Source of the DNA: Escherichia coli
GTDB lineage: Bacteria > Pseudomonadota > Gammaproteobacteria > Enterobacterales > Enterobacteriaceae
Strand: one strand, 5' to 3'
Assembly: GCF_029227855.1 (NCBI RefSeq)
Contig: NZ_CP074356.1
DNA length: 64,000 nucleotides
This document shows positions 11,140 through 11,162 of the stretch, piece by piece (position 1 is the stretch's first letter; each line of letters opens with the position of its first letter). The translations under genes were made by a program, and so were the position numbers. The notes beneath the pieces are model-generated. The model was not told the DNA's origin. It saw only the letters and a program-made list of their open reading frames with translations, and searched no databases.

Positions 11140-11162
11140 TGGTGCGAAGGCCGGACTCAAAC
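11140..11162. repeat. degenerate direct repeat of the leuX 3' end (putative distal att site of the leuX island)
   Basis: tggtgcgaaggccggactcaaac versus leuX 3' end tggtgccgaaggccggactcgaac at 58230 in the same orientation (one indel, one mismatch). Confidence 0.5.

Follow-up and report, generated by a model that had tools for sequence, protein, structure and literature searches.

The repeat at 11140-11162 as the probable attR of a P4-type leuX island in Escherichia coli, bordering a defence cassette outside the island

The 23-nt repeat at positions 11140-11162 of the window, i.e., the whole analysed stretch of 64,000 nucleotides from the Escherichia coli contig NZ_CP074356.1 (assembly GCF_029227855.1), is very probably the attR of a P4-family-integrase island inserted in the 3' end of leuX. 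With the same high confidence, the SNF2 defence cassette on the other side of the repeat is neither part of this island nor a recognisable second island. The feature is an ordinary attR of an already-known leuX island type and lies beside a known defence hotspot. The island and its two ends comprise the following features, given in window coordinates:

11140-11162, plus strand: attR, consisting of a core copy TGGTGC-GAAGGCCGGACTC (11140-11158) minus one C and of AAAC (11159-11162), the first bases of the element arm
58230-58314, minus strand: leuX, tRNA-Leu(CAA), called by ARAGORN; 58230-58249 is the attL copy of the 20-bp P4-type att core
11163-58229, no strand assigned: leuX island body of about 47 kb, based on the annotation of E24377A and on open reading frames, missing as a unit from 35 genomes
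56887-58031, minus strand: P4-family integrase pseudogene at the tRNA-proximal island end, located by tblastn with P4 Int
11093-11139, minus strand: displaced native-type leuX terminator ('type A', predicted), a hairpin at 11105-11124 with a U-run, ending AGGCACAAAAAAAG (11094-11107, plus strand)
58187-58229, minus strand: island-supplied leuX terminator ('type B', predicted), the hairpin GACGTC-CGTT-GACGTC at 58200-58215 with a U-run

The only tRNA gene detected by ARAGORN in the window is leuX, a tRNA-Leu(CAA) gene on the minus strand. Its 3' end at 58230-58253 reads TGGTGCCGAAGGCCGGACTCGAAC, and the sequence at 11140-11162 reads TGGTGCGAAGGCCGGACTCAAAC on the same strand, with one C deleted and one substitution. 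This match in the same orientation, with one indel and one mismatch, had been claimed from the sequence-only reading; it was seen base by base, and chance was excluded by shuffles, as an exhaustive fuzzy scan with up to five errors found exactly two copies in the window, no third copy of the leuX end, and none in eight shuffled versions. The exact 13-mer GAAGGCCGGACTC occurs at two sites only, 11146 and 58237, with a chance expectation of 0.08 matches even with one mismatch allowed. Likewise, the repeat was found where it had been placed, between the CP4-like terminal genes and the SNF2 cassette. On the left of the repeat, 390 nt separate it from the start of the SNF2 gene (10750), which is transcribed away from leuX; on the right, remnants of CP4-like genes (HTH, DUF957, YeeW-like DUF5983 and CbtA) follow after about 140 nt.

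The annotated attP core of phage P4 (NC_001609, 4078-4097) is the 20-bp sequence TGGTGCCGAAGGCCGGACTC, which is followed by AAACATCAAAATAAG, starting with AAACAT. The leuX 3' end at 58230-58249 is identical to this core, and the window attR reads as the P4 core minus one C, then AAACATGCG, so that 19 of 20 core bases are matched at the far boundary (11140-11158). Since the attR copy consists of the core minus C and then the element arm, the G-to-A 'mismatch' is the first arm base and the true core is 20 bp long. The description of the copy as degenerate is thus retained for the loss of one C and dropped for the G-to-A difference as a mutated tRNA base, because the P4 attP arm also reads AAAC. 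Decay of a displaced tRNA end was rejected as the source of this difference, as P4 attP and the arm of a P4-like satellite both read AAAC there. The insertion left leuX intact, and island DNA begins at 58229.

The similarity of both copies extends outward for about 47 nt, with AGGCACAAAAAAAG followed by a hairpin whose stems differ between the two sites. The hairpins outside both copies are predicted rho-independent terminators for the tRNA. Type A has a folding energy of -17.7 kcal/mol and was independently called by a consensus terminator scan (11124-11105, minus strand). Type B folds with -13.7 kcal/mol (z = -2.5) and runs on into integrase-arm sequence at 58150-58186; the integrase-arm part beside it is shared with the island of GB089 and partly with K-12 (ACTGGATTTCAGGCA). 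Type B is absent from the empty-site genome BL12 (see below). In BL12 and ET201, type A directly follows an intact leuX, and by rough extrapolation from a spread listing it stands next to intact leuX in several hundred genomes. Moreover, a hairpin homologous to type A follows leuX in Enterobacter. Type A is probably the native leuX terminator, which we infer rather than state as observed because in GB089 a type A terminator adjoins an integrase arm.

Each leuX island type was seen to bring its own replacement terminator, with hairpins unlike one another, namely type B here (58187-58229), type C in K-12 and 536, and type A in GB089. All replacement terminators precede the conserved arm motif ...GGATTTCAGGCA(C/T)AAAAAAAG; further examples are found at 2491-2545 of the extracted locus L006 and in the loci L004 and L018. 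The native leuX flank has only AGGCACAAAAAAAG in common with the island arms. In addition, an extracted locus of Pantoea sp. IMH (2282-2305) features a type B terminator and an integrase arm in the same style as the window attL. There, the arm adjoins a 3'-half fragment of tRNA-Leu with the T-loop reading A (TGGTGCCGAAGGCCGGACTCAAACCGGCAC), and unrelated DNA lies beyond. The site may be a hybrid or a secondary att site in another genus.

The comparison with genomes that lack the island involves the genes to the left of the repeat, which continue beyond the window with an HNH remnant, a nanS pseudogene, nanM and nanC as outer flank:

7859-10750, minus strand: SNF2-family helicase (DrmD-like), the first cassette gene (PADLOC DrmD, E = 1.3e-199; annotation)
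4717-7853, minus strand: type III-like DNA methyltransferase (Mod), in two open reading frames here (PADLOC MTase_III, full length on the E24377A copy)
1334-4714, minus strand: type III restriction-enzyme-like DEAD/DEAH helicase (Res; PADLOC REase_III, full length)
985-1287, plus strand: 100-aa ORF travelling with SNF2-Mod-Res (conservation beside Res)
1-672, plus strand: 3' part of an SBD-HNH (phosphorothioate-dependent) restriction endonuclease, where the outer flank starts (annotation; PADLOC HNH)

A 3-kb query centred on the repeat was searched against 5426 complete E. coli genomes. In BL12, the match spans from SNF2 to exactly window position 11162 and is then followed by an annotated tRNA-Leu; at the base level, the left flank of the window through 11139 is fused to an intact leuX. 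The BL12 locus comprises nanC, nanM, nanS', HNH', SBD-HNH, the 100-aa ORF, Res, Mod, SNF2, leuX and ahr, without an integrase and without the fec/CP4 island. Using the BL12 junction as query with a coverage threshold of at least 80%, 36 complete E. coli genomes were retrieved. All except LR-46, which is an IS3 deletion derivative, carry the SNF2 cassette followed in turn by the type A terminator, an intact leuX and ahr, and no integrase. The junction is 93.8-100% identical among these 35 genomes, whose hosts range from humans to bats. Thus, the comparison with genomes lacking one segment places the empty-site junction at the repeat, and the island extent of 11163-58229, as it had been proposed beforehand, is confirmed by 35 genomes without this stretch and with the breakpoint exactly at 11162. 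The BL12-type genomes were either never occupied or are products of precise excision.

Before the insertion, the order would have been nanS, HNH, SBD-HNH endonuclease, SNF2-Mod-Res cassette, native terminator and leuX, as it is still present in BL12-type strains. Site-specific recombination between the attP of the island and the 20-bp core in leuX would have placed the island directly after the tRNA, ahead of the tRNA's own terminator. The integrase-side arm would then have supplied the downstream sequence of leuX including a replacement terminator, and the old terminator, preceded by the core copy and the first arm bases (AAAC ATGCG...), would have been pushed about 47 kb off.

From left to right past the repeat, the window features the CP4-like module (GTPase, Ag43, antirestriction, RadC/JAB, YeeU/CbtA and YeeW-like genes), IS elements and fecIRABCDE, the cluster shf-capU-virK-msbB2(lpxM), BCCT/DUF2254 genes and IS66, and the fragments of the integrase pseudogene as the last part of the island cargo, followed by leuX, ahr, yjgR and lptGF. 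The tblastn search with P4 Int matched residues 5-97 and 105-387 with 50-58% identity in two different frames; the match ends at residue 387 of 439, and the open reading frame fragments comprise only 112 and 183 aa. Because the integrase is broken and attR is one core base short, the leuX island would presumably be unable to excise unaided. In the event of recombination within the repeat, leuX would probably receive the one-base deletion and its acceptor stem would be damaged, by analogy with reports for PAI II536.

E. coli E24377A and its relatives match the first 24 kb of the window with 99.9% identity, and the island interior differs from the E24377A RefSeq record in IS and intron content, so that the window stems from a close relative of that strain. 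The shf (polysaccharide deacetylase)-capU-virK-msbB2(lpxM) cluster at 42471-46347 features a GC content of 40-42%, with remnants of IS3 and IS66 at its flanks, and is more familiar from virulence plasmids of Shigella and EAEC. Besides, over the attR junction and the SNF2 upstream region, the window is matched without any difference by the contig USKA01000076.1 (5529 bp), which is assigned to 'uncultured Streptococcus sp.' and is evidently a mis-binned E. coli contig.

The distribution of cassette and island among genomes separates the two. The cassette (coverage of at least 80%) occurs once per chromosome in each of the 149 genomes that have it, and a 210-bp attR junction was found in 1004 genomes. 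The window-type junction of cassette, attR and CP4-like module occurs in 95 genomes, the cassette without the island in 35, and the island end without the cassette in most of the 1004; about 19 of the 149 cassette genomes have neither main junction type. Beyond the same attR, other genes are located in ATCC 25922 (an Eco31I-type RM system and McrBC) and in 536 (one hypothetical gene), and the GC content of the cassette (36-45%) contrasts with that of the CP4-like module (54-57%). All three observations support the earlier claim that the cassette is a separately acquired segment, and joint movement of cassette and CP4-like module is not the rule throughout, as each occurs without the other. The additional claim, that the cassette arrived through tandem or serial integration once the att site had been regenerated, is not supported in view of the missing integrase trace, the missing third att copy and the cassette abutting the terminator in empty-site genomes.

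Regarding its gene content, the cassette shares a DrmD-like SNF2 protein with class 1 DISARM. However, PADLOC detected no equivalents of DrmA, DrmB (DUF1998) or DrmC (PLD) in it, and its other large proteins are full-length type III Mod and Res. Judged from its predicted proteins, the cassette is better described as a type III-like RM system with an SNF2 partner than as canonical DISARM. The 100-aa ORF had no match in the PADLOC search. Mod is split in the window by a 1-base indel into ORFs of 560 and 459 aa, compared with a single 1040-aa CDS in E24377A, which reflects either an inactivated gene in this strain or a sequencing error. Furthermore, E24377A and BL12 share no detectable similarity over a Mod block of about 1.3 kb (18220-19541 of the E24377A locus, about 5320-6640 of the window), and their cassettes are about 98% identical elsewhere. 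The target-recognition domain appears to have been exchanged here, which would alter the specificity.

Homologues of SNF2, Mod and Res with 83-87% identity occur in Salmonella, Enterobacter and Vibrio. The 100-aa ORF adjoins Res in Salmonella and Enterobacter, and in Vibrio one 274-aa ORF intervenes. In Vibrio cholerae, SNF2-Mod-Res, with the 100-aa ORF one gene further, is cargo of a P4-family-integrase island at the tmRNA site. In Enterobacter hormaechei, the cassette has leuX on one side and the same SBD-HNH gene on the other, in the reverse of its E. coli orientation. The Salmonella copy adjoins SBD-HNH, and no integrase occurs within 10 kb of it. By its recurrence in these genera, SNF2-Mod-Res with the 100-aa ORF qualifies as a portable four-gene module. 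As a separate observation, the SBD-HNH (PT-dependent) endonuclease neighbours this module (985-10750 in the window) in E. coli, Salmonella and Enterobacter.

Different explanations were considered for the repeat and for the cassette beyond it. It is extremely improbable that the 23-nt copy resembles leuX by chance or is a decayed tRNA pseudogene that has nothing to do with island boundaries. The repeat is short and imperfect, and nothing else speaks in favour of this explanation, against which stand the lack of any match in the shuffles, the exact coincidence of the breakpoint with the empty-site genomes, the match to core and arm of the P4 attP and the conservation of the junction in 1004 genomes. 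The cassette, in turn, could be an earlier leuX island that was pushed outward when the fec/CP4-like island entered the regenerated att site and formed a tandem array. Such arrays do exist at leuX. In GMM060, a CP4-like island is followed by an att copy, a frameshifted integrase and a kinase/HerA island; in STEC1589, a P4-like satellite is followed by an att copy, an integrase arm with a DUF4102 stub and defence genes; NCTC11121 features an att copy, a type B terminator and an integrase-arm remnant. Moreover, the cassette is low in GC and patchily distributed, and its V. cholerae counterpart is carried by the P4-family-integrase island mentioned above. Nevertheless, an origin of the E. coli cassette as a displaced tandem island appears quite improbable. 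An att copy is present between island and cassette (11140-11162), but no integrase, integrase remnant or arm was found between 10751 and 11092 when 10751-11139 was compared with five integrase regions by tblastx and blastn-short, the sole match being the 47-nt terminator. As true leuX tandem arrays elsewhere show arms or remnants after the internal att copy, the absence of integrase traces is informative here. Remnants can also persist recognisably at this very position, since about 50 nt of integrase arm are kept next to a type I RM system in the flanks of ET201 and 15A. Beyond the cassette, no further att copy was found with up to five errors in E24377A (13 kb left of the window), BL12 and ET201, nor by a 13-mer scan of the E24377A locus. 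In the empty-site genomes, the cassette immediately adjoins the native-type leuX terminator in the manner of ordinary flanking DNA of the chromosome, and its orientation relative to the tRNA is opposite to that on the Vibrio island.

A related proposal, which is unlikely as well but somewhat less so than the tandem array, regards the cassette as the stripped remnant of an older leuX element whose integrase, arm and distal att were deleted or overwritten. It would agree with a series of decay stages at leuX, ranging from frameshifted integrases (GB089, GMM060) and the DUF4102 stub of STEC1589 to arm-only remnants in ET201 and NCTC11121 and the entire loss of attR in K-12, and also with the demonstrable mobility of the cassette between genera. 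In view of the V. cholerae island, the cassette may have had an integrative origin in E. coli, with all traces since lost. Still, no positive trace of such an element was found in E. coli, and the junction of cassette and terminator is clean and the same across lineages, with the 93.8-100% identity given above. In Enterobacter, the inverted placement of the cassette in the same slot, between leuX and the same SBD-HNH gene, fits module replacement better than integrase-mediated insertion. The cassette is rather one of several alternative defence modules in an integrase-less slot, which reaches from the leuX terminator to the endonuclease/nanS flank.

The limits of this slot can be recognised from the homology breakpoints, with nanS, HNH and the 5' part of SBD-HNH as the conserved outer flank and the leuX terminator as the conserved inner anchor. 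The SBD-HNH gene or its remnants occupy this position without the cassette in ET201, NCTC11121, 536 and K-12, where a 248-bp remnant is left. The slot contains a type I RM system in ET201 and the Eco31I-type RM system with McrBC in ATCC 25922. In the outer flank, nanS is annotated as a pseudogene and HNH is about 570 bp shorter in E24377A (11508-12600 of the locus) and BL12 compared with ET201, where both are intact; strain 536 features the same HNH stub, by annotation.

The missing C of attR (window position 11145/11146) is absent from every E. coli copy examined, and P4 attP and leuX retain it. An 87-nt query with the C restored matched 1366 E. coli genomes, none of them at 99% identity or above, and every full-length match was 86/87. 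For the junctions of P4-like satellites, a 260-nt query with restored C gave 254 matches, and nearly all of the 16 full-length ones listed were one base shorter. The C is also absent from a P4-like junction in an Erwinia MAG and from the internal junctions of tandem arrays. A species-wide scan for both core versions yielded 3 loci only, too few for statistics. At the same spot, strain 536 features a 2-nt deletion and NCTC11121 an 8-bp triplication; with different lesions at one position, the spot behaves as an indel hotspot. The lesion sites in the att core are located at 892-913 of the extracted locus L019, about 8980-9015 of L010, 7048 of L011 and 1505-1527 of L014. Among 5424 genomes, leuX itself lacks the C in two, which were sought as excision products (O111:H21 strain 15A and strain 702/18). 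In 15A, the C-less leuX is directly followed by the integrase-less outer flank, as an excision product would show; it is either such a product or a CC-to-C assembly error.

Simple integration does not explain the missing C, because P4 attP and leuX both have it. Furthermore, tandem internal junctions without the C conflict with the standard model, which predicts an intact core in a functional leuX. It was considered that the elements' own attP supplies the C-less core, with a crossover at the extreme 3' end. The genome patterns fit this idea, but P4 attP has the C, and re-integration of PAI II536 was reported to restore leuX (PMC3202238). An explanation by recurrent lesions is favoured, which would arise at the integrase cleavage site and then stabilise the island. 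Whether the one-base deletion in the chromosome-side att copy goes beyond random decay and serves as a functional lock is doubtful, with the odds clearly against it. If the site were the integrase cleavage position, abortive excision could produce lesions, which would then block excision, and a rare excision would leave a broken leuX, repairable only by another P4-family element. Such a lock, if true, would make the occupancy of leuX self-reinforcing and help to explain why it is the most occupied E. coli defence hotspot (97%).

The results fix the island boundary to the base for annotation and set a virulence and iron-uptake island apart from a neighbouring defence module of different history. 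leuX islands, short direct repeats and the leuX defence hotspot have all been described already, so that the findings will not surprise specialists; more work might be worthwhile only on the one-base lesion fixed in attR. With regard to defence islands, the outermost defence genes of the leuX hotspot are located outside any integrase-bounded element and are probably turned over by another route, e.g., by replacement between conserved flanks.

This touches on the known organisation of leuX, which is listed as defence hotspot #37 of E. coli. Among 41 hotspots, it is the one most often occupied, and the gene clusters there take each other's place (PMC10121019, PMC12707154). Like the present locus, hotspot #37 is leuX-anchored and hypervariable (Hochhauser et al. 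2023, PMC10121019; review PMC12707154). DISARM, type I RM, PT-related systems, AbiE and P4-like satellites are listed for it, all of which were met at this locus. In contrast to the review, in which the mobilising integrase is placed at the leuX anchor (PMC12707154), the outermost modules of the window, BL12, ET201 and ATCC 25922 lie beyond the last att copy and feature no integrase of their own.

Compared with phage P4, the island uses the same 20-bp core TGGTGCCGAAGGCCGGACTC at the leuX 3' end, the element arm opens with AAACAT in both, and the island integrase is 50-58% identical to P4 Int. Differences concern the integrase-side arm, which lacks a leuX-type terminator in P4, whereas chromosomal islands have one (types A, B and C) after the conserved ...GGATTTCAGGCACAAAAAAAG, and the C of the core, which is kept in P4 attP and absent from the chromosomal attR copies checked.

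The closest counterpart in terms of architecture is PAI II536 of uropathogenic E. coli 536, which shares the insertion site, the integrase family, the distal arm (ATGCGATTTAACCTCATGATTTAAAATTG...) and the CP4-like terminal genes, as well as the same type A terminator past attR and the same outer flank (SBD-HNH, HNH remnant, nanS, nanM and nanC). Its att copy reads TGGT--CGAAGGCCGGACTCGAAC, of which the 18 bp CGAAGGCCGGACTCGAAC are identical to leuX; this identity corresponds to the classic '18-bp direct repeat' of PAI II. The att lesion sits at the same position in both islands, but the attR of 536 is 2 nt short and keeps GAAC, whereas that of the window is 1 nt short and reads AAAC. The cargo differs as well, with hly, pap and hek on 102 kb in 536 and fec, virK, msbB2 and Ag43 on about 47 kb in the window, and the slot past attR contains one hypothetical gene in 536 and the SNF2 cassette here. 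The integrase of 536 is annotated as intact and reported to be active (PMC3202238), whereas the window copy is a pseudogene. For PAI II536, this integrase is leuX-specific, excision to a circular intermediate and re-integration were shown, and the re-integration restores the complete tRNA gene (PMC3202238).

In terms of site and cargo, the window island corresponds to the PAI-leuX of ED1a (57 kb), CE10 (42 kb) and S88 (39 kb), which carry Fec, VirK, MsbB2 and Ag43 (PMC7545054); this likeness is drawn from published cargo lists. KpLE2 of K-12 has leuX, an intB pseudogene and the fec operon in common with the window island. It features neither a distal att copy nor a CP4-like end, and the yjh/sgc/topAI genes reach up to the 248-bp SBD-HNH remnant; K-12 was rejected as reference for the distal boundary because it has no distal att copy.
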